From Minisyncoccia bacterium (GTDB lineage: Bacteria > Patescibacteriota > Minisyncoccia > Phycocordibacterales > UBA9973), in NCBI GenBank assembly GCA_049287045.1, contig JBAQFC010000011.1:23058-87057 (forward strand): DNA of 64,000 nt, in the 5' to 3' direction. Made by a program: the position numbers and the translations under genes. This document shows, one piece after another, positions 8,803 to 45,163 of this stretch. How positions within the stretch are numbered: position 1 is the stretch's first letter; each line of letters opens with the position of its first letter. Under the pieces are notes generated by a model. That model had not been told where the DNA came from. It searched no databases and saw nothing but the letters and a program-made list of their open reading frames with translations.

Positions 8803-8915
8803 TATTACACGAAAAGTATTTTTTAAAAAGCATTGCACAGGCCGACGGGCCGAGCATAGCAATCCGCCAGCAGGCGGATATGTGCGGTTTTTAAAAGATA
8901 CTTTTCGTAGTAATA
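8803..8915. repeat. Extended-hairpin intergenic repeat, copy 1 of 4
   Basis: Conserved core AAAAAGCATTGCACAGGCCGACGGGCCGAGCATAGCAA…TGTGCGGTTTTTAAAAGATA. The outer stem cgaaaagtat/atacttttcg pairs, and the apical hairpin is tccgcc-agca-ggcgga. Confidence 0.8.
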
Positions 8916-9769: not shown

Positions 9770-11251
9770 CTACTTCATCAAAATCAGCTTCCCTGTTCCA
9801 GATTTATTATTTTCATGATTTTTTATTTCATAAAAATAACAACCGGGAGAAAGGCCTTCAAATGAAAAAACATTCTTCTCATCTTGAACTTTTCGGCTCA
9901 TCAATAACTTACCTGCAATATCGTACAGAGAAAAATTGATATCTTCTTTCCCTGTAAAATTTTTCAGTTTTAATGTTACTTCACCTAAAGACGGGTTTGG
10001 GTATATGCTCCAACCAAAACTTTCGTGTTCTGATGTATTTACTGAAATTTGTAAATCCAAAGAATCCGGTCCGAGTTTTAAAAAAAGTGTACGCCAATCA
10101 ACAGATGCCAATGAATCCTGTTCTATACCCGCAATTACACACCCACCATCTGCAGTTAGACAAGAACTAGTAGACACAAATGAGTGCCCGGGAACACCAC
10201 CTATTTTTTTGGTCCAAAGGGTATCACCATCTTCCGTGATTCTCATAACAAAAGAACAATAATCAGAATTAACCTCAGGACCATATCCCCCTAAAACACC
10301 AAAAGCAACAAAACCAGAATTATTTTTAGCAACAATATTTCCAAACCCACCATTTTCTACTGATAAATTAAAATTCTTGCGAGATAAAAATAATCCATTA
10401 GAATCTAATTTAACGGTAGAATAACTATGAAGGGAAAGAGTATCAGTAGAATTCAGACCAACAAACATAAATGATCCATCAATTTTACTTTTAGTAAAAG
10501 AAGTTGGTTTGAACGTATCTGAAAAATGATATGAATAAACACTATCACCTGCAGCATTTGTCTTTAAAAAAAAGTCTTCTCCAGTTCTTGAATTATAACC
10601 AAGAGTAGTATTATACTTCAATCTAATTAACTGTCCGAAACCATTGTTTAACACAACAACCTTACCAACTAAACCTAAATTAATACTATGATAAAGAGTG
10701 GCACTACTATCTAAGTAGTGATTTTTATACCACAACATAGTTCCAATAGAATCAATTTTCATTAAAAATGAATTTCTTTGTGAATAAGAGTTAGTCCCTG
10801 TTTTTCTTGTTCCTGAAACAATGTAACTATCCCCAACTATATCGATAGATGGAGCAAGGTAATTTGATGAACTACCGTAGTTATGGTTCCATAATATATT
10901 GCCATTTTTATCTGTTTTAATAACAATCAGACGTTGATTGCCTGAAGTTTTCGAACCACAAACAATATATCCATCAGGAGTATCCTTAAGATTAAAAAAA
11001 GAATTACCTAAACCACCTAAGAATGTCTGCCAGAATATATTTCCCGTAGAATCAATTTCTTCTAAAAGGTACTCATTGATACTGTTTCTGAAAACAATAA
11101 CAAAATGTTTGTTATTAGTTTCCACTACACCATATGATGGTCCATGTATACTGTCATTTTTAATAAACTGCCATTTTACTTGTGGAGCAAGGATTGATTG
11201 AGCATGCAACGTGGTTGCAATAACCCAAAATAAGAATACGAGTTTTTTCAT
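9770..11251 (-). CDS. Secreted beta-propeller-like repeat protein with T9SS-type C-terminal sorting-domain-like tail
   Basis: 493 aa with a signal peptide (MKKLVFLFWVIATTLHAQS). The C-terminal 80 aa (YPNPSLGEVTL…FSLYDIAGKLL…GLSPGCYFYEI…TGKLILMK) matches the Por/T9SS CTD pattern. Confidence 0.6.
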   Translation of the reverse strand: MKKLVFLFWVIATTLHAQSILAPQVKWQFIKNDSIHGPSYGVVETNNKHFVIVFRNSINEYLLEEIDSTGNIFWQTFLGGLGNSFFNLKDTPDGYIVCGSKTSGNQRLIVIKTDKNGNILWNHNYGSSSNYLAPSIDIVGDSYIVSGTRKTGTNSYSQRNSFLMKIDSIGTMLWYKNHYLDSSATLYHSINLGLVGKVVVLNNGFGQLIRLKYNTTLGYNSRTGEDFFLKTNAAGDSVYSYHFSDTFKPTSFTKSKIDGSFMFVGLNSTDTLSLHSYSTVKLDSNGLFLSRKNFNLSVENGGFGNIVAKNNSGFVAFGVLGGYGPEVNSDYCSFVMRITEDGDTLWTKKIGGVPGHSFVSTSSCLTADGGCVIAGIEQDSLASVDWRTLFLKLGPDSLDLQISVNTSEHESFGWSIYPNPSLGEVTLKLKNFTGKEDINFSLYDIAGKLLMSRKVQDEKNVFSFEGLSPGCYFYEIKNHENNKSGTGKLILMK

Positions 11252-17608: not shown

Positions 17609-17698
17609 AACATAATTATATACTTTTTAAAAAAACAAAACAATAAAAATTAACAAGGATGTGGAAAACTGTTCACAAAATTCATCACACGAAACTTT

Positions 17699-17743
17699 CC
17701 CCGACCCCCGGGATAGGGGATTCCCCTATCCCGGGGGTCGGGG
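17699..17743. repeat. 45-nt perfect GC-rich palindrome in the divergent region upstream of nusA
   Basis: ccccgacccccgggatagggga-t-tcccctatcccgggggtcgggg; it shares the core taggggattccccta with the palindrome at 1080. Confidence 0.8.
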
Positions 17744-17802
17744 AAGTTGGTCTTTTAAAGATATTGACTTTTTTGACCAAATAAAATAACATATTAAGTA
17801 TT

Positions 17803-19788: not shown

Positions 19789-20031
19789 ATGGAGCCAAAT
19801 AAAATACAACATGAAGAAAGAACAAGTGGTGCTTTAATAGGTTCGGTTATTATTATAATAATTCTCATTGTTGGTGGAATTTATTTCTGGCAAACAAGTT
19901 TAAAAGAAAAATTAGATCAAGCGCCTGCAAATACAAATTTAGAAAATACTACTGATACTTCTGGTCTTCCTTTAAATATTCAAAAAGATTTAAACAATAT
20001 CAATTCAAATAATCCTGATGAAGCCATCTAA
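19789..20031 (+). CDS. Small membrane protein
   Basis: 80 aa with one transmembrane helix; followed by a terminator at 20045-20082. Confidence 0.35.
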   Translation: MEPNKIQHEERTSGALIGSVIIIIILIVGGIYFWQTSLKEKLDQAPANTNLENTTDTSGLPLNIQKDLNNINSNNPDEAI

Positions 20032-20114
20032 ATAAAAAATAAAAATAGCCCCGTCGCTCAAGAGCGACGGGGCTATTTTTTGACAAAAAAGACCAATAAA
20101 TATAATATACGAAG

Positions 20115-23600: not shown

Positions 23601-23700
23601 AAGAAGTGTAACTTTTAAAAAGCATTGCACAGGCCGACGGGCCGAGCATAGCAAATTTTCAGCAGAAAATTATGTGCGGTTTTTAAAAGATATACTTCTA
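23601..23700. repeat. Extended-hairpin intergenic repeat, copy 2 of 4
   Basis: Same conserved core as copy 1. The apical hairpin is aattttc-agca-gaaaatt, a compensatory change relative to copy 1. The outer stem is gaagtgta/tatacttc. Confidence 0.8.
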
Positions 23701-28581: not shown

Positions 28582-28854
28582 ATGAATAAACAAGCATTAG
28601 TTGAATTAGTTCATGAAAAATTAGGAGGTACAAAGGTACAAGCTGAAGAAATCGTAGATGCGATGTTTGGTGCAATCGTTGGTACAATGAAAAAAGGAGG
28701 TGAAGTATCAATAGCTGGATTCGGAATCTTTTCCGTAAAAGCTCGTGCTGCTAGAATGGCTCGCAATCCAAAGACTGGAGAACAAGTCAAAGTAGCTGCT
28801 AAGAAAGTTCCAAAATTCAGAGCTGCAAAGGCTTTGAAGGACGCAGTAGAATAA
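28582..28854 (+). CDS. hup: DNA-binding protein HU
   Basis: 90 aa HU/IHF fold (GFGIFSVKARAARMARNPKTGE); followed by two tandem terminators at 28866-28950. Confidence 0.9.
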   Translation: MNKQALVELVHEKLGGTKVQAEEIVDAMFGAIVGTMKKGGEVSIAGFGIFSVKARAARMARNPKTGEQVKVAAKKVPKFRAAKALKDAVE

Positions 28855-28945
28855 TATTTTATCTCGAGATAAAAAACAAAAGCCACCGAAAGGTGGTTTT
28901 TGTTTTGCAAATAAAAAAACCGACATCATTCTAGATGTCGGGTTT

Positions 28946-29488
28946 TTATTTTTTTAGTACCTTTTTAGTGATACCAAGGAAATAGTAATAATTTCCATTC
29001 CATTTACCCTCTGAAGGGTACAAGCCTAAAGCCAATCCTCTCTTGGGATCAAGGATCAATGGTACACTTTTGAAACCATCAAACACAACTTCAGATCCCA
29101 GAGCTACAACTCCGAACCCTTCAATTAAATGAGTTTCAATTCCAAATGATTGAAGTTCTTTGATTGTTGCAGGACGTAAGCCATGACTTTGCATAGAATC
29201 TAAAACATTCTTTGATGTTATGAAACCAGGTAAAGAAACAAGGATACCAGTGAGTGAATCTTTGCCAATAGATTTTTCTTTTTTAAATAAAATATTTGAA
29301 ATTTCATTTTTATAAAAGAAATAGCCTCCAGTAGTACTTAATTGCTCAACTGTATTTTTGTAATTAACAAAAAACTTAACAGGAGTCTGGTTCGGTAGGG
29401 CTGGTACACTTTTTTGACCAGCACAACTAAAAGAAGAAATGCTGGTTACTATTAAAAGTAACTCAACAAAAAAGATTAACTTTTTCAT
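28946..29488 (-). CDS. Secreted/lipoprotein-like hypothetical protein
   Basis: 180 aa with a signal peptide and a Cys shortly after it. Confidence 0.45.
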   Translation of the reverse strand: MKKLIFFVELLLIVTSISSFSCAGQKSVPALPNQTPVKFFVNYKNTVEQLSTTGGYFFYKNEISNILFKKEKSIGKDSLTGILVSLPGFITSKNVLDSMQSHGLRPATIKELQSFGIETHLIEGFGVVALGSEVVFDGFKSVPLILDPKRGLALGLYPSEGKWNGNYYYFLGITKKVLKK

Positions 29489-34862: not shown

Positions 34863-35074
34863 ATACTCAAGTATATATTTTGGTATAGTTTTGTCAATAT
34901 GAAAAGGTAATGTGCACACACATTTATTGACAAGTTAACATATAAATGATATTGTGTTTTAGTGTCAGTTCTTTAATATCTTGTTTTAGTTTTACTTGTT
35001 TGGGTTATTTTGTATTTCCATTTTGGAATTTAAAGTAATCCAAATAAGCATCAACAATCTAAAACTTTATAATA

Positions 35075-36034
35075 ATGAAAAAACCAACTTTAATTTTAAC
35101 TACAGTTATAACGGCTTTAGTTGTTATATTATTTTTTAGTAATAAAATTGAATCAATGATAAGCTTTACCAATATGAATTGGCTTCCATATTCAATTGCA
35201 TCAACAATATTATTGGGAATTTCAATGTCCTTATATAAAATGCCCTCATTTAAAGGGTATAGTAGTTTCTTTTCTACTTTTTGGACAAATATTTTCTCTG
35301 CCTTTTTTGTTTTATTATCTCTAATAATCTTCGGCCAAAGTTACTTGTCCGGATTATTAAGTATTTCTTGGTATGCAATAATTTGGGGAGGATTCTTTGC
35401 TATCAATATGGTACTGCAAAAGATTTTACTTCATAGTGTTGAAACAAATTCAGCATATCCAGTTACATCTTCTATTGGAAGTATTGTTACTGTTTTGATC
35501 GGTATAACTGTTCTTTCTGAACATGTCTCCCTTGTACAAGCATTAGGAGTTATTATTATTTTGCTTTCCGTTTTTCTTTTTACAAGAAAAAGTGGTTCAT
35601 TCCCGTTGGATCAAAAGACAATTTTGCTTTCTCTTGGAATTATCGCTTCATCAACAGCATCAAAATATGTTCAAAAATTAGGAGCAGTCAATGATTCAGT
35701 TACTCATTTTATGTTATGGCAATATTTAGGAGCAGCAATTTTTGCCATTTTTATTGCTTACATTTTTGAGAAAAGAAAATTTAAAGAAATAACGCACTTG
35801 GGTAAATACTGGAAAGGTTCCGCGCTTATTGGTTTATTTTCTGTTTTAGGAGGTTATGCAATATTTAAAGCACTTTCTATTGGTCCACTTTCTGGAGTGT
35901 ATGCAATTCACCCAGCTTATACTTTTATAGCAGCAATTTTTGGTTTTGTTTTCTTTAAAGAAAAACTAACGAAAAAGAAAATAATTCTAGCACTAATAAG
36001 TATTGTGGGTATAATTCTTTTAAAGATTGGATAG
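35075..36034 (+). CDS. EamA/DMT-superfamily transporter
   Basis: 319 aa with about 10 transmembrane helices and the duplicated EamA topology. Confidence 0.7.
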   Translation: MKKPTLILTTVITALVVILFFSNKIESMISFTNMNWLPYSIASTILLGISMSLYKMPSFKGYSSFFSTFWTNIFSAFFVLLSLIIFGQSYLSGLLSISWYAIIWGGFFAINMVLQKILLHSVETNSAYPVTSSIGSIVTVLIGITVLSEHVSLVQALGVIIILLSVFLFTRKSGSFPLDQKTILLSLGIIASSTASKYVQKLGAVNDSVTHFMLWQYLGAAIFAIFIAYIFEKRKFKEITHLGKYWKGSALIGLFSVLGGYAIFKALSIGPLSGVYAIHPAYTFIAAIFGFVFFKEKLTKKKIILALISIVGIILLKIG

Positions 36035-39004: not shown

Positions 39005-39081
39005 ATATAAAAATTATTCTAATAATAAAAAATACCGACCTATCAAGATTATAGCACTTTTATAAAAACCACTGTTAATGA

Positions 39082-39262
39082 GAAGTAAAGTATTTTTTAA
39101 AAAGCATTACGCCGTCCACAGGTGCACATCAATATCCGATGTGCCAGGCCGACGGGCCGAGCATAGCAAATTTTTGATTCTGCAGAATCATGCCGCGCAA
39201 TGTCCATTGAGGCGCGGCCAGTATTTTTTTATGTGTGGTTTTTAAAAGATACTTTACTTTGA
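39082..39262. repeat. Extended-hairpin intergenic repeat, copy 3 of 4 (with inserted extra hairpins)
   Basis: The core aaaaagcatt…aggccgacgggccgagcatagcaaa…tgtgtggtttttaaaag is retained but interrupted by ggtgcacatc…gatgtgcc and gccgcgc…gcgcggc hairpins. The outer stem is gtaaagtat/atactttac. Confidence 0.75.
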
Positions 39263-39287
39263 AATTAACCTAAAAAAACCAAACAAA

Positions 39288-39678: not shown

Positions 39679-39785
39679 GAGAAATAAAGTATTTTTTAAA
39701 AAGCATTGCACAGGCCGACGGGCCGAGCATAGCAAATTTTCAGCAGAAAATTATGTGCGGTTTTTAAAAGATATTTTGTTTTCTC
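39679..39785. repeat. Extended-hairpin intergenic repeat, copy 4 of 4
   Basis: Core identical to copy 2, including the aattttc-agca-gaaaatt apical hairpin. Confidence 0.8.
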
Positions 39786-40758: not shown

Positions 40759-41113
40759 AAAAAATCTCCTTCGTTGAATAAACAACGAAAGAGATTGATA
40801 CGATAAAACCAAAAAGTTTAATAAGATAAAAAGGAAATTCTTTGACCTTCCCATTTTCTTGTTCCACCATAACACAAGGAGATAAAACATCTATCTTCTT
40901 TTTCTGCAACAGGAATTACAGGCTCTTTTACTTTAACTTTTACCGGAGCCGGGGCAAAAAGCATTAAAATTGAAACTATTACATTAGTTTCTTTCCCTTT
41001 TTTCATTTGGTTTGTTTTTTTAATTGTGAATACTATTGTATTTAAAGAACGAATCCAATCCTAACTAGGACGGAAGACTAGTATACCTGCTTCATATAAA
41101 AAAGCAAACTTTG

Positions 41114-41122
41114 GTGTACAAT
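41114..41122 (+). promoter_or_regulatory. Extended -10 (TGtTACAAT) 6 nt before the xth start codon (leaderless-like)
   Basis: ttggTGtACAATatatgcATG, with the ATG at 41129. Confidence 0.35.
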
Positions 41123-41128
41123 ATATGC

Positions 41129-41902
41129 ATGACAAAGATAGTTTCCTGGAATACAAACGGTCTACGAGCCACAGCCAAAAATGGTTTTTTTGCTCCATTA
41201 TTTAAAAATAAAAAAATGGATATTTTGTGCTTGCAAGAAACAAAAGCAGAAGCTGACCAACTCCCTCTAGAAGTACGAGATGTCCCAGGCTACTCTTCTT
41301 ACTTTTCTCATTCTAAATTACGAAAAGGTTATAGTGGCGTAGCAATATATTCAAAAATAAAACCAATAGAAATTTTTTACGGTATAGGTATAGAAAGATT
41401 TGATATTGAAGGACGAATAGTCGGAACCAAATATGAAGACTTCACTCTAATAAACGTTTACTTTCCAAATGCTGGCACAGACCCAGAGAGACTAAAGTAC
41501 AAACTTGAGTTTTATGATGAATTCTTGAAATTTGTCTTGAAACTAAGAAAAAAAGGTGAACATGTAATATTTTGTGGGGACGTAAACACAGCCCACACAG
41601 CTATTGATCTAGCTCGACCAAAAGCCAACGAAGAAAATACTGGTTTCCTACCAATAGAACGTGAATGGATTGATGAAGTTATAAATAATGGATTTTCTGA
41701 CGTTTTCAGGCATTTTTACCCAACCAAAAAAGATGCCTATACATATTGGGATATGAAAACCTTCGCGAGAGACCGAAATGTAGGCTGGAGAATTGATTAT
41801 TTCTTTGCTAGTAATGAAATAGTTTCTAAAATAAAAAAAACTGGTATAGATACTGACTATATGGGCTCTGACCACTGCCCTATCTGGATGGAAATTGAAT
41901 AA
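41129..41902 (+). CDS. xth: Exodeoxyribonuclease III / AP endonuclease
   Basis: The ExoIII sequence starts at MTKIVSWNTNGLRA; the ORF-track start at 41111 adds 6 unlikely residues. Confidence 0.85.
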   Translation: MTKIVSWNTNGLRATAKNGFFAPLFKNKKMDILCLQETKAEADQLPLEVRDVPGYSSYFSHSKLRKGYSGVAIYSKIKPIEIFYGIGIERFDIEGRIVGTKYEDFTLINVYFPNAGTDPERLKYKLEFYDEFLKFVLKLRKKGEHVIFCGDVNTAHTAIDLARPKANEENTGFLPIEREWIDEVINNGFSDVFRHFYPTKKDAYTYWDMKTFARDRNVGWRIDYFFASNEIVSKIKKTGIDTDYMGSDHCPIWMEIE

Positions 41903-41908
41903 AAAAAT

Positions 41909-41940
41909 AAGCCAGACGTTTTAATGTCTGGCTCGAAGAT
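41909..41940 (-). terminator. Terminator downstream of the sigma factor gene (minus strand)
   Basis: Hairpin gccagac-gttttaat-gtctggc followed by a U-run on the minus strand. Confidence 0.5.
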
Positions 41941-41973
41941 TATTTTACTTCAAGGCTTTGTCTATTTCCTTTT

Positions 41974-42903
41974 TCAATCTAAGACCTTATTACCAATTTC
42001 ATCCTGTCCGAGATATTCCTTTAAAAATTTACTGCGACTACTCTGTTTTAATCTTCTAATGGCTTTCTCTTTTATTTGAGAAACTCGTTCTCGTGTTAAA
42101 TTAAATTTTTCTGCTATTTCCTCAAAAGACAAACGAGGAGAGCCAATGCCAAAATAAAATTTAATAACATCTTTTTCACGTTCAGCAATAGTATTCAATG
42201 CTCTTTCTATTTCAATACCAAGAGATTCTTTATGAAGAATCTCGAAAGGAGAAAATTCATCAGTACCAAATAAATCAGTTGCTTCAAATTCAACAGATTC
42301 AAACGTGTCTAAATTTAAAAAAACTTTATATGGCTCATTAGTGGAAACAATCCTTTTAGGAACTCCTAAAATCAAGTTTAATTCATGCTCACACATTTCT
42401 AATTCTTTGGAGATATACTCATTTTCTGGGTAATAACCATTCTCTACAAAAAATATGTTACTTATTTTCTCAGCCTTTGATCTTGTTGAAGCTATGTTCT
42501 GTGGCAACCGAAAGAATTTATCAAATTTAATTGATGCATCTAACATGCTTGCTTGGATACCCCATACAGCATAGGACAAAAATTTTGCTCCTCTGGTGTC
42601 ATCATATCTGAAAGCAGCTTTAATTAAACCAATACAACCCTCATTAATCAAATCATCTAAGTTCAATAAGCATTTATTAGCTTGATATTTTTTCGCAACA
42701 GAGATAATAAAAAAAATATGAAGTTTTAAAAGATTTTTAAGAGATTTTTCATCTCCCTTTTTAACTTTTTTAATTAATTCTATTTCCTCATCGCAACTAA
42801 TTGGTTTATGACTATCAATTTCTTTCAAAAGATTTTTAAAAGAAATTGTTCGACTAGAAATATATTTAATTCCTTTGTCTGTTTTGAATTTAAAAGATCC
42901 CAT
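41974..42903 (-). CDS. RNA polymerase sigma factor, sigma-70 family (regions 2-4)
   Basis: 309 aa: region 2 (DLINEGCIGLIKAAFRYDDTRGAKFLSYAVWGIQ) and a region 4.2 HTH (LSFEEIAEKFNLTRERVSQIKEKAIRRL). Confidence 0.8.
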   Translation of the reverse strand: MGSFKFKTDKGIKYISSRTISFKNLLKEIDSHKPISCDEEIELIKKVKKGDEKSLKNLLKLHIFFIISVAKKYQANKCLLNLDDLINEGCIGLIKAAFRYDDTRGAKFLSYAVWGIQASMLDASIKFDKFFRLPQNIASTRSKAEKISNIFFVENGYYPENEYISKELEMCEHELNLILGVPKRIVSTNEPYKVFLNLDTFESVEFEATDLFGTDEFSPFEILHKESLGIEIERALNTIAEREKDVIKFYFGIGSPRLSFEEIAEKFNLTRERVSQIKEKAIRRLKQSSRSKFLKEYLGQDEIGNKVLD

Positions 42904-42933
42904 ATATCTGTATTTTTAAATTGTTTAAGTGCA

Positions 42934-42985
42934 TCTGTTTCGTCCTTTTGGACTCATCAGTCGAAATACACATTTCGAGACAGAG
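42934..42985 (-). ncRNA. Hammerhead ribozyme (type III), copy 1, in the 5' region of the sigma factor gene
   Basis: Minus-strand RNA reads 5'-CUCUGUC^UCGAAAUGUGUAUUUCGA-CUGAUGA-GUCCAAAAGGAC-GAAAC-AGA. Stem I is a 7-bp hairpin, stem II is GUCC/GGAC, stem III is ACAGA/UCUGU, the cleavage triplet is GUC, and all invariant core nucleotides are present. Confidence 0.8.
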
Positions 42986-43069
42986 CAGTGAGTATTTTTT
43001 CTCACTGCATACACTTTTCAGTTTCAGGATGTTGCGTTCCTAACCAGAGGTTTGAGTTACTCTATTCGC

Positions 43070-43717
43070 TCAACTTTGTTTGGGTTTTTTCTTAGCCTCA
43101 ACTCGAAAGACTCCATCTCTTACCGTTTGTATTGCCTTGAAATGCATATTGATAATATCGGGGGTAATCGCAATTACTTCCTGAGCTAAATCAATTGCTT
43201 CTTCAATTAAATACCCACGTTTGGATTCACGCATTTCCTCCAGGCAGTCGGAAATAATCATGAGACATGATGCCTTAGGCATGTAGTGGTCATAACCACG
43301 TGCGAGAGGTTTCCCTTTCTCGCCATAACCTGCAAGAATATTATTCCCTGTTACTTTTCTATCTTTATTCAGAGCAGCACAGCAGAACTGTGATGGTTGA
43401 GTTATAGATTGAGTAGATACAGTTAATACATCTTCTTTCGGATAATGCACATACACAGCAACCCCTGCTTGATTATTCCAATCTGTACCAAAAACATCCG
43501 AAATACTTTTAAGCGCATTGGCGGCTAATTGTTTATATGGTCTTGTCGATCCAGTATAAATATAACCACCCCTTGGCTCTAGGGAATCTGGGGCGATACT
43601 GCGAGAATCTCTGCCCGAATTGAAATGCTTAAGTAAAGCTTCGTGATTTTCCTGCTTAAGTAAAAACAGTACGTTAATGCTTTGAGTCAAAACGGGAAGT
43701 TTATCTATTTTTTTCAT
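43070..43717 (-). CDS. Hypothetical protein (between two hammerhead motifs)
   Basis: 215 aa with no recognised domain. Confidence 0.45.
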   Translation of the reverse strand: MKKIDKLPVLTQSINVLFLLKQENHEALLKHFNSGRDSRSIAPDSLEPRGGYIYTGSTRPYKQLAANALKSISDVFGTDWNNQAGVAVYVHYPKEDVLTVSTQSITQPSQFCCAALNKDRKVTGNNILAGYGEKGKPLARGYDHYMPKASCLMIISDCLEEMRESKRGYLIEEAIDLAQEVIAITPDIINMHFKAIQTVRDGVFRVEAKKKPKQS

Positions 43718-43748
43718 GGCTATTTAGTTTTAGATTTAACAAAGAACA

Positions 43749-43798
43749 TCTGTTTCGTCTTTTTAGACTCATCAGTCGAAATACACATTTCGAGACAG
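43749..43798 (-). ncRNA. Hammerhead ribozyme (type III), copy 2
   Basis: Same core as copy 1: …GUC^UCGAAAUGUGUAUUUCGA-CUGAUGA-GUCUAAAAAGAC-GAAAC-AG. Stem II shows the covarying pair GUCU/AGAC versus GUCC/GGAC in copy 1. Confidence 0.8.
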
Positions 43799-43907
43799 TG
43801 TGGCAAAAATATTTTCACCACTATTTGGATAATTTTACTTTGAGGCTTGTCCGTTTCCTTTTTAATATTAAGCGGTGAGGTGAGAATACTCAACCATATT
43901 CCTTGAT

Positions 43908-44096
43908 TTACTCAACAACTTTTCCTGACCCACTACAAGGTATATCTCTAACATTCCTCAAGTGGACACCCTCGTCTGAATCATCTAGTTCGCGAGGTGC
44001 TACTCTTGTGTGAGATAATAATTTAAATTTACCCTGAATCTCAGTTTCCTGAGCGGAAATTTCTTTTCCGCATTCTGGACATATACTTTTTTTCAT
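43908..44096 (-). CDS. Small zinc-ribbon-like protein
   Basis: 62 aa with a CPECG motif; it would be the first cistron of the ribozyme-punctuated transcription unit. Confidence 0.35.
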   Translation of the reverse strand: MKKSICPECGKEISAQETEIQGKFKLLSHTRVAPRELDDSDEGVHLRNVRDIPCSGSGKVVE

Positions 44097-45163
44097 ATCT
44101 GTATAATTTTAAGTTAGACAATATATTAAAGAACAATCTCTACAGAACGATCATTCGACTTCGCTCATGACAAGCAAACAAATCACAGTTCTGATAAAGA
44201 GGAGAAACATTTGCCGTAGCATTTGTTTCTCCAAAATTAAACTTTTCTCTGTTACCAGAGAGGCATCACGTTCCACCGTGAAGGTTTTTACCTACCACAC
44301 CCTAGGATTAGGATAACCGACAAATGTCGATTAGATTTCTGGATTACAACGATTGTGTATTCCAAATTGCACAATATCTCTGACAATACGTTTTTGTCAT
44401 AAATTCTTAGCTGTGCTTGGTTTGGAAAACCATACACAACCAAGAAGAAGATCTGCTCCCTACTGGTCTCTCCGGCGCTGGCTCCCGGAACTTGCTTCTT
44501 TGCTCATATTCCAGAGTGGAAATTGAAATTTGGTTTAAAAGAAGTTGCACTGTGAATCGTCAACTAAACACAGGCTCCAAATTTCAATTTCCACCCTAGA
44601 ATTATTTTTAAAAAACATTTACACTATCAATCCACGAAACATTTCATGAACTGAATAATGTGGGTGACTTTTACTAAAGGTGTCACCCGGGTTTTCCTTG
44701 GATGTTTTTATTGGGCACATCTTTGCCTTTTTATACGATGAGCTAATTAGTTCGTACTACCTGAGTTCTTATCTAGAACCATTACCCATTGGGGTCTTCA
44801 GAATTCTTCTTTCGAAGAACCTCTGGCTGCGTGACATCGCCTTTTTAGGGGATCCGTCGGCAGTAAAACCATTTTGGGCAAGTAGCTTATTAGCCATTCT
44901 GTCCAACTCTTTTGTGTCTTTCATACACTTGGGGTTTGATTGGTTACTAATATCTCCATATATAGAGACAATAGTAACCAATCAAACCTTTATAAAATGA
45001 ACAAGTTTGAATTTTTGAAATAACCTTTATCAAACTTCTGAATTTAATTTAGCAATAATTATTTACTTTGTCAACTAGTTTTGTCATGTTATTTCTGTTA
45101 AAATCATATAAAGTAAGCATATAAACAATTTATTATTAATCTAACAAGAATTTTTGTCATTTT
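44097..45163. other. About 1 kb ORF-free, GC-elevated, hairpin-rich region (candidate structured RNA/regulatory region)
   Basis: No credible ORF. Contains 17-18-bp perfect inverted repeats (gtggaaattgaaatttgg…ccaaatttcaatttccac at 44516-44596; ggtttgattggttacta…tagtaaccaatcaaacc at 44935-44990) and many shorter hairpins. Confidence 0.4.

Follow-up and report, generated by a model that had tools for sequence, protein, structure and literature searches.

We analysed a stretch of 64,000 nucleotides (the window) from contig JBAQFC010000011.1 of assembly GCA_049287045.1, in which a minus-strand operon is punctuated by two sequences with the appearance of hammerhead ribozymes, HHR-A and HHR-B. The 96-kb contig belongs to a metagenome-assembled genome (MAG) of Minisyncoccia, which form part of the Candidate Phyla Radiation (CPR, or Patescibacteria), and carries on its record both the 215-aa open reading frame (ORF) and the sigma factor of the operon. 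Read along the minus strand, the unit consists of module 1 (with an element that we call motif b), about 370 nt containing a long inverted repeat, module 2 (motif b again), a zinc-ribbon ORF of 62 aa (43908-44096, weak Zn_ribbon match, E 0.0014), module 3 (HHR-A), the 215-aa ORF (43070-43717, no fold assignment), module 4 (HHR-B), a sigma-70 family factor of 309 aa (41974-42903) and a closing hairpin with U tract that resembles an intrinsic terminator (41909-41934). The genes are all co-directional. An earlier note on this DNA had described the hammerheads as a pair framing the sigma factor gene, but it is the 215-aa ORF that lies between them; that note mentioned neither the upstream hairpins nor the boxA-like motifs, nor the pair of non-hammerhead modules further upstream.

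HHR-A (43750-43798, minus strand) and HHR-B (42934-42984, minus strand) are identical at 52 of 55 positions in minus-strand reading and share one layout: CUGU-C(17), UCGAAAU-GUGU-AUUUCGA, CUGAUGA, GUCY-AAAA-RGAC, GAAA, ACAG. The invariant catalytic core, comprising CUGAUGA, GAAA and the GUC cleavage triplet, is complete in both. Stem I (UCGAAAU-GUGU-AUUUCGA) is a closed 7-bp hairpin, and stem II, a closed 4-bp hairpin, reads GUCU-AAAA-AGAC in HHR-A and GUCC-AAAA-GGAC in HHR-B, a compensatory change between C-G and U-A at the closing pair. Stem III is only 4 bp long in HHR-A (CUGU/ACAG, 43798-43795 with 43753-43750) and only 5 bp in HHR-B (UCUGU/ACAGA, 42984-42980 with 42938-42934). With closed stems I and II and an open stem III, the topology is type III. 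C17 is C43794 in HHR-A, predicted to be cut on its 3' side between 43794 and 43793, and C42979 in HHR-B, likewise predicted to be cut on its 3' side. The ribozymes end 32 nt (HHR-A) and 30 nt (HHR-B) upstream of the start codons at 43717 and 42903. The complete core, the type III topology, the compensatory stem II change and these distances had all been given in the earlier note and were borne out by sequence reading. HHR-A and HHR-B are thereby genuine-looking type III hammerheads, for which self-cleavage is predicted.

The Rfam covariance-model check proposed in the earlier note matched Hammerhead_3 (RF00008) at both places, 42932-42986 with 45.0 bits (E 3e-8 in the sub-region, 1.3e-6 in the whole window) and 43747-43801 with 41.1 bits (E 4e-7 and 1.7e-5, respectively). 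Both scores lie below the gathering cut-off of 48.5 bits, an outcome that the note had counted against its proposal, and a default Rfam scan of the window for that reason reports just four tRNAs. The shortfall is uninformative, because every CPR member tested behaves alike: 12 other members of the family scored 31-47 bits, all below 48.5. The Rfam threshold is too strict for the CPR subfamily, which probably explains why the latter is unannotated. By contrast with the rest of the window (at most 10.5 bits), the two copies scored 76.8 and 73.7 bits against R1, a family covariance model to whose training set they belonged. Two Logan unitigs from different sequencing runs are exact substrings of the window (41076-42953 and 41834-42980), so the sequence is not an artefact of one assembly; both end within HHR-B, as expected at a repeat.

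The hammerhead family in CPR genomes and phages

In the search of other genomes suggested in the earlier note, the module arrangement proved widespread in CPR. A metagenome scan with a stem-I-specific pattern found no close relatives of the locus itself. The comparison was therefore made at the level of the family and not of the locus. When the exact pattern CTGATGAGTCNNNNNNGACGAAACAG was scanned against IMG/VR and bacterial genomes, it matched 51 IMG/VR stretches and at least 120 bacterial genome stretches, so that pattern scans recovered about 170 near-identical ribozyme architectures (the bacterial part being a lower bound). Among the 120 bacterial matches listed, 85 carried CPR names (Saccharibacteria, Paceibacterota, Nomurabacteria, Taylorbacteria, Kaiserbacteria and Doudnabacteria occur among them), 25 were unnamed and 10 belonged to other phyla. 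Almost all pattern matches have the ribozyme architecture seen in the window.

R1 was built from an alignment of 136 family sequences, in which stem I is 99.1% paired, with many double changes at six of its seven pairs (n=136), and stem II is 99.6% paired, its fourth and closing pair being CG in 103 sequences, GC in 16, UA in 10 and AU in 2. Stem III comprises four invariant pairs and a fifth that covaries and is paired in 69%, with none beyond it. No shuffle out of 500 reached the covariation score observed for this alignment. The nearly invariant nucleotides of loop I (U-G) and loop II (AAA) fit a loop-loop tertiary contact. Applied to 693 kb of CPR loci, R1 identified 181 hammerheads, with arrays of up to six within 3 kb. 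The housekeeping context that the earlier note had described is real, the neighbours including S15, PNPase and MurI; what it had called unusual is, at this density of matches, common in CPR. Comparison loci outside the window are referred to below by numbered labels such as L062 and L075. One of them, L067 (Bacterium D16-36, a 532-nt scaffold), carries a hammerhead like those of RiboJ and of sTRSV (satellite tobacco ringspot virus RNA) beside the cloning-site-like sequence CTGCAGGTCGAC, and is probably contamination of the genome assembly by a synthetic construct. The idea that hammerhead-boxA modules occur in rRNA operons was rejected, as there were zero multi-signature rRNA matches.

The conservation of the family bears on the possibility that the modules are selfish or relic repeats, which would have spread by duplication or recombination together with cassettes of small orphan genes, would bring the host no benefit and would perhaps no longer cleave. 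Copies within a locus are nearly identical and copies from different genomes differ, the associated genes are mostly orphans, and a 36-nt stretch is repeated past the stop codons of the sigma and Zn-ribbon genes, all of which would suit such a history. However, an invariant core combined with covarying stems over some 136 diverged copies indicates purifying selection on the fold, and spread by duplication is compatible with function; we consider selfish or decayed repeats an unlikely explanation. The 36-nt stretch itself (41938-41973 and 43828-43863, just past the two stop codons) is 72% identical between its copies, which hints at duplication of cassette-like units.

Analysis of the genes downstream of the family revealed ORFs starting at a median of 57 nt past the ribozyme, mostly of 50-300 aa and belonging to no recurrent family; those scanned are largely devoid of Pfam domains. 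In other CPR genomes the module stands before about 90 genes that are unrelated to each other and for the most part orphans. The window itself has two orphan-type genes after its modules, the third being the sigma factor. In L075 (2252-2444, minus strand), from a Candidatus Doudnabacteria MAG, 7 nt separate a type III hammerhead from a downstream match to transfer-messenger RNA (tmRNA; Rfam, 56.9 bits), which ARAGORN missed and Rfam later matched. A hammerhead in front of tmRNA suggests that the ribozyme serves generally to generate the 5' ends of RNAs.

These downstream genes bear on the question of sigma-specific riboregulation, the idea of the earlier note, by which a switch made of the hammerheads, dedicated to the sigma factor and possibly conditional, would set its level post-transcriptionally. 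HHR-B does lie 30 nt upstream of the sigma start codon, and sequences resembling the C-terminal domain of RpoA were seen, by eye only, downstream of modules in L113, L156 and L158. A dedicated switch is nevertheless hard to reconcile with a module that stands, across CPR genomes, before so many unrelated genes and a tmRNA, and we see no extension that could sense a ligand or a protein, stems I and II being minimal closed hairpins. Sigma-specific control is thus not supported and appears quite improbable. Because the downstream genes are heterogeneous small orphans, the module is better regarded as a generic intercistronic processing element.

The sigma factor aligns over its full length, with 45% identity, to a compact Bacteroidota RpoD and falls below all NCBIfam cut-offs; it has no sigma paralogue within the 64-kb window. 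No close homologues of the sigma factor or of the 215-aa ORF were found, and the family of the latter comprises about nine representative clusters, with about eight distant relatives among 1.8 billion representative sequences. A tie between the 215-aa ORF family and the ribozyme was considered and rejected, since the locus of a distant homologue (L174) contains no hammerhead. The MAG, labelled Minisyncoccia, also encodes a protein with a Por_Secre_tail (9770-11251, minus strand), the sorting signal of the type IX secretion system; together with the sigma factor, whose closest relatives are Bacteroidota RpoD, this could reflect horizontal transfer, or a binning question worth checking.

Composition of the modules

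Across the family, stem III is preceded by a separate hairpin, with 0-2 nt between the two. Mean folding energy is -10.4 kcal/mol for the 32 nt that lead up to stem III; a control region lying 40 nt more upstream gives -4.8 kcal/mol, and shuffles give -3.8 kcal/mol. On the downstream side, GNTCHTT occurs within 30 nt, mostly at 2-6 nt, in 63 of 131 CPR copies (48%) and in 1 of 43 phage copies, the controls giving 2.3 of 177 (shuffles) and 5 of 177 (upstream control region). The published consensus of boxA, the site of NusB/NusE, is GYTCTTTAANA (PMC5725501). The downstream motif, with consensus (A/U)GUUCUUUNAAA, almost matches this sequence, which is gamma-proteobacterial and may not be the host's consensus. 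We take (A/U)GUUCUUUNAAA to equal the Gram-positive rrn boxA. Compared by eye with the gamma-proteobacterial consensus, GUUCUUUGUUA after HHR-A agrees at 9 of 11 positions and GUUCUUUAAUA before the Zn-ribbon gene at 11 of 11.

Four such modules punctuate the operon, modules 3 and 4 with a hammerhead and modules 1 and 2 with motif b. In module 3, a 9-bp hairpin (43800-43821, minus strand) ends 1 nt before stem III of HHR-A, and the boxA-like motif UGUUCUUUGUU (43738-43748, minus strand) follows 1 nt after the ribozyme. In module 4, the hairpin GCAGUGAG-8 nt-CUCACUGC (42985-43008, minus strand) abuts stem III of HHR-B, and a divergent boxA-like motif, UGCACUUAAACAA (42921-42933, minus strand), lies downstream. 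Over its last 12 nt, the latter agrees at 10 positions with GCUCUUUAACAA, which we take to be the rrn boxA of E. coli; this motif fails the strict GNTCHTT test.

Examination of the sequence before boxA-like motifs that lack a hammerhead identified motif b, a recurrent and conserved bulged hairpin that is not a hammerhead and is followed by the same boxA-like motif. Its P1 (YUCUUUA/UAGAGAR) leads into one bulged U, then C-G and A-U pairs and lastly a variable P2 hairpin. It has the consensus YUCUUUA-U-CARG...YUUG-UAGAGAR, and has, like the hammerheads, a separate hairpin before it and a boxA-like motif after it. A strict structural scan yielded 15 matches and none in shuffles. The 12 ungapped copies, picked partly for pairing, are 93% paired and have 10 pairs with double changes. 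A second covariance model, R2, recovered 24 copies from those 693 kb of CPR loci; in L054, L062, L069, L107, L129, L136 and L159, motif b lies among hammerheads of like orientation.

The window's two copies of motif b are both found in the 1 kb, supposed to be non-coding, that precedes the Zn-ribbon gene. The computed folds of both agree with the predicted structure. Module 1 (minus strand) consists of a hairpin, GGGUGAC...GUCACCC (44662-44688; fold of 44600-44692, z = -5.7), a class 2 motif b in the hammerhead slot, ACAUUAU-U-CAG...UUG-AUAGUGU (44621-44661), and a degenerate boxA-like motif, AUGUUUUUUAAAA (44606-44619). Scored against R2, a class 1 model, this motif b reached 18.9 bits (E 0.12); it represents a divergent class with close relatives in L062, L064, L069 and L073. 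A long inverted repeat (44508-44602), with 26-nt arms that are 92% complementary and a 43-nt loop, lies between modules 1 and 2. Module 2 (minus strand) has the hairpin GGAGAAACA...UGUUUCUCC (44201-44232), a class 1 motif b with a long P2 insert, UCUUUA-U-CAGAAC...GUUCUG-UAGAGA (44136-44200, z = -6.8), and the boxA-like motif UGUUCUUUAAU (44125-44135), 29 nt before the Zn-ribbon start codon. The short-form R2 did not detect 44136-44200; its conserved flanks match, and a homologous long form is present in L069 (651-719). The P2 inserts of these two long forms have in common YUGUCAUGAG-NNNN-GUCGAAUGAU, which loosely resembles a hammerhead minus stem I (UGUC and AUGAG ... GUCGAA). A degenerate hammerhead upstream of the Zn-ribbon gene was considered and rejected, the alignment being unconvincing and the element being motif b.

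Rfam gave no match to motif b, either in the window at E <=5 or in six loci with motif b or hammerhead arrays at E <=0.5, and none of its covariance models for twister, twister-sister, pistol, hatchet or HDV-like ribozymes matched. In the 1-kb leader upstream of the Zn-ribbon gene, Rfam returned only spurious miRNA-like hairpin matches. For motif b, a site of RNA processing and a new small ribozyme are both conceivable.

The mixed arrays also bear on the possibility of a circular RNA. Two hammerheads in tandem could excise the 815-nt RNA between their cuts (43793 to 42979), including the 215-aa ORF, with a 5'-OH and a 2',3'-cyclic phosphate at its ends, for circularisation by an RtcB-type ligase, as a DNA-encoded analogue of retrozymes and viroid-like RNAs. 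HHR-A and HHR-B are indeed direct repeats in the same orientation, 815 nt apart, that flank the 215-aa ORF, and since stem I and the CUGU/ACAG core of stem III are identical in both, the ligated junction would rebuild a complete ribozyme. Their type III topology and short stem III resemble those of retrozyme hammerheads. Elsewhere, however, the arrays mix hammerheads with a hairpin that does not look like a ribozyme, in up to six units, for which serial processing of mRNA is a better fit. Clustered bacterial hammerheads gave no circular or spliced products when these were sought (Perreault et al., PMC3088659), and no RtcB was present among the window ORFs covered by an incomplete scan. Excision of a circle seems to us highly improbable.

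A further alternative accepts the ribozymes as real and assigns the GUUCUUU motif a function other than boxA, namely a translation enhancer, a binding site for an RNase or another protein, or part of an alternative fold that disables the ribozyme after cleavage. By sequence reading, GUUCUUU is complementary to AAAGGAC, which comprises loop II and the 3' strand of stem II in its commonest form. The three genes of the operon lack Shine-Dalgarno sequences, so that an element of the leader could have a part in translation; the motif occurs in the leaders of the Zn-ribbon and EamA-family genes, where there is no hammerhead; and its identity as boxA is proposed on resemblance. Pairing of GUUCUUU with stem II was nonetheless rejected: the motif is unchanged where stem II becomes, for example, GUCG-GAAA-CGAC, and since it does not covary with stem II we regard it as a sequence signal and not a pairing partner. 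This constancy, together with the near position-for-position match to the published boxA, makes a role other than boxA rather unlikely. The leader of the EamA-family gene (start at 35075), on the plus strand at 34951-34991, contains GUCAGUUCUUUAAUAUCUUGU, near-identical to the boxA-like leader GAUUGUUCUUUAAUAUAUUGU of the Zn-ribbon gene, with no ribozyme nearby.

Proposed processing of the operon transcript

We favour, with moderate confidence, the reading that HHR-A and HHR-B are functional type III hammerheads of a family centred on CPR and also present in some phages, and that they act in an operon of four modules, each composed of hairpin, cleavage element, boxA-like motif and gene. We infer that the region is transcribed and cleaved, that the RNA ends are protected and that Nus factors bind. 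The operon transcript would run on the minus strand from about 45.05 kb, where the best promoter-like site for the operon, supported by weak evidence, reads TTGACA-17-TAAATT with a TG (45046-45074, minus strand), to the terminator at 41.9 kb. Processing would be constitutive, intercistronic and in cis: each hammerhead of modules 3 and 4 would fold during transcription and cut 3' of C17. The cut would be effectively irreversible because a stem III of 4-5 bp melts, such a short stem favouring product release. The upstream product would be a message ending in the hairpin plus CUGUC with a 2',3'-cyclic phosphate, an end that should shield it from 3' exonucleases, for instance PNPase, whose gene lies in the window, and the downstream product a 5'-OH message that keeps the folded ribozyme as a cap-like structure at its 5' end. 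Cutting of a polycistronic RNA into separate messages, as the earlier note had envisaged, is the natural reading of these co-directional genes and the same proposal has been made for clustered prophage hammerheads (PMC3088659).

The GUUCUUU-type motif 3' of the ribozyme would then act as boxA and load, or re-load, NusB/NusE with NusA and NusG onto the polymerase. A polymerase so loaded would read on through the hairpins, and the freed, untranslated 5' RNA would not trigger termination. Because a Nus-modified polymerase would lose its RNA tether at the cut, reloading may be needed in each module, which, more speculatively, would provide the rationale for one boxA per cistron. If the motif is boxA, CPR 16S leaders might carry the boxA GUUCUUUGAAA. 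NusA, RNase Y and PNPase are all encoded in the window.

Several points weigh against this scheme. Both hammerheads score under the Rfam gathering threshold (41.1 and 45.0 against 48.5 bits), and minimum-free-energy folds do not contain the three-way junction, stem III being very short (4 bp in HHR-A), so that tertiary contacts or co-transcriptional folding would be needed. The promoter-like matches in the region are no more frequent than in shuffles. The boxA assignment is proposed from sequence resemblance; GCACUUAAACAA after HHR-B differs at two positions from what we presume to be the rrn boxA of E. coli; over the whole window, boxA-like strings show no significant enrichment; and a non-exhaustive search for nusB in the window did not find it, NusA being the only Nus factor seen there.

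Beyond this operon, we suggest tentatively that hairpin, cleavage element and boxA together form a CPR device that splits the transcripts of fast-evolving arrays of small genes into stable monocistronic messages and re-arms the polymerase with Nus factors after each cut. The central slot could then be filled by a hammerhead or by motif b, the latter being either a new self-cleaving RNA or the site of a dedicated endonuclease.

Genomic setting and relation to known systems

The operon lies in chromosomal DNA. Its neighbours encode ribosomal protein S15, PNPase, a XerD-like recombinase, exonuclease III, a TrmB-type regulator and MurI, and the window further includes genes for a CCA-adding enzyme, NusA, RNase Y, trigger factor and RecJ as well as four tRNAs. 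Phage hallmarks are absent from the neighbouring genes, PHROGs matching only the sigma factor, and no prophage or mobile-element context was found at the locus of HHR-A and HHR-B.

Other structured sequences in the window were noticed along the way. A repeat of about 86 nt occurs in four intergenic copies on the plus strand (8816-8901, 23608-23693, 39689-39774 and 39079-39265) and is composed of a basal stem of some length, a GGCC-GACG-GGCC hairpin that is invariant and another hairpin, in which the changes are fully compensatory; two extra hairpins are inserted in the fourth copy, and the repeat has no Rfam match. Two further Rfam matches, both on the plus strand, are sub-threshold: manA RNA at 28818-29014 (31.2 bits, the gathering score being 55.2; E 3e-4) and Thr_leader at 19968-20081, before the trigger factor gene (35.5 against 55 bits, E 0.007), the latter probably by chance. 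A perfect palindrome with 24-nt arms (TTCCCCGACCCCCGGGATAGGGGA and its complement) is located at 17697-17745, between a 666-aa ORF and nusA.

The role of bacterial hammerheads, like gene expression in the mostly uncultured CPR, is still largely obscure. If the proposed processing is correct, it would be the first link between RNA self-cleavage and Nus-factor antitermination and would give hundreds of bacterial hammerheads a testable role. It would also mean that the Rfam threshold systematically hides a whole CPR subfamily, and that an unclassified RNA element occupies the hammerhead slot; twister, pistol and hatchet were discovered by such a route. The modules could serve synthetic operons as compact natural insulators.

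Clustered gene-flanking hammerheads have been known since 2011, when they were described in prophage regions of A. tumefaciens, A. caulinodans and C. scindens, shown to cleave in vitro and, for one set, also in vivo, and proposed to cut long transcripts into gene-length mRNAs (Perreault et al., PMC3088659). Like those clusters, the hammerheads of the CPR family occur several together in one orientation and frame single genes or short blocks. They differ in their CPR host, in housekeeping neighbours (S15, PNPase, ExoIII and MurI) in place of a prophage, in the boxA-like element and in the alternation with a non-hammerhead hairpin. No paper linking natural hammerheads with boxA or with CPR lineages was present in the literature searched, within which the CPR bias, the chromosomal non-prophage setting, the fixed composition of hairpin, ribozyme and boxA and the interchangeability with motif b appear to be new.

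With the type III examples of RF00008, from sTRSV and the plant satellite and viroid RNAs, the family shares its core, its three-way junction topology and loop nucleotides that suggest a contact between loops I and II. In contrast to those examples, its members lie between protein genes of a bacterial chromosome, have a stem III of 4-5 bp, always follow a separate hairpin, often precede a boxA-like motif and score under the gathering threshold. The motif GUUCUUUNAAA resembles the boxA/Nus sites of rrn leaders, lambda nut, suhB and CRISPR leaders in being near consensus and in an untranslated leader (PMC5725501, PMC7665894), within about 50 nt of a start codon. As in the boxB-boxA arrangement of rrn, it is preceded by a stem-loop. 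Unlike known boxA sites, this putative boxA is repeated before each cistron and coupled directly to a self-cleaving ribozyme. Finally, the modules recall the RNase III sites of T7 early mRNAs and the synthetic RiboJ insulator, which leave, as the modules are predicted to do, a protective 3' hairpin on the upstream RNA and a context-independent 5' end on the downstream one; they differ from these in that cleavage in modules 3 and 4 is predicted to be catalysed by RNA and in that the element is a natural one.

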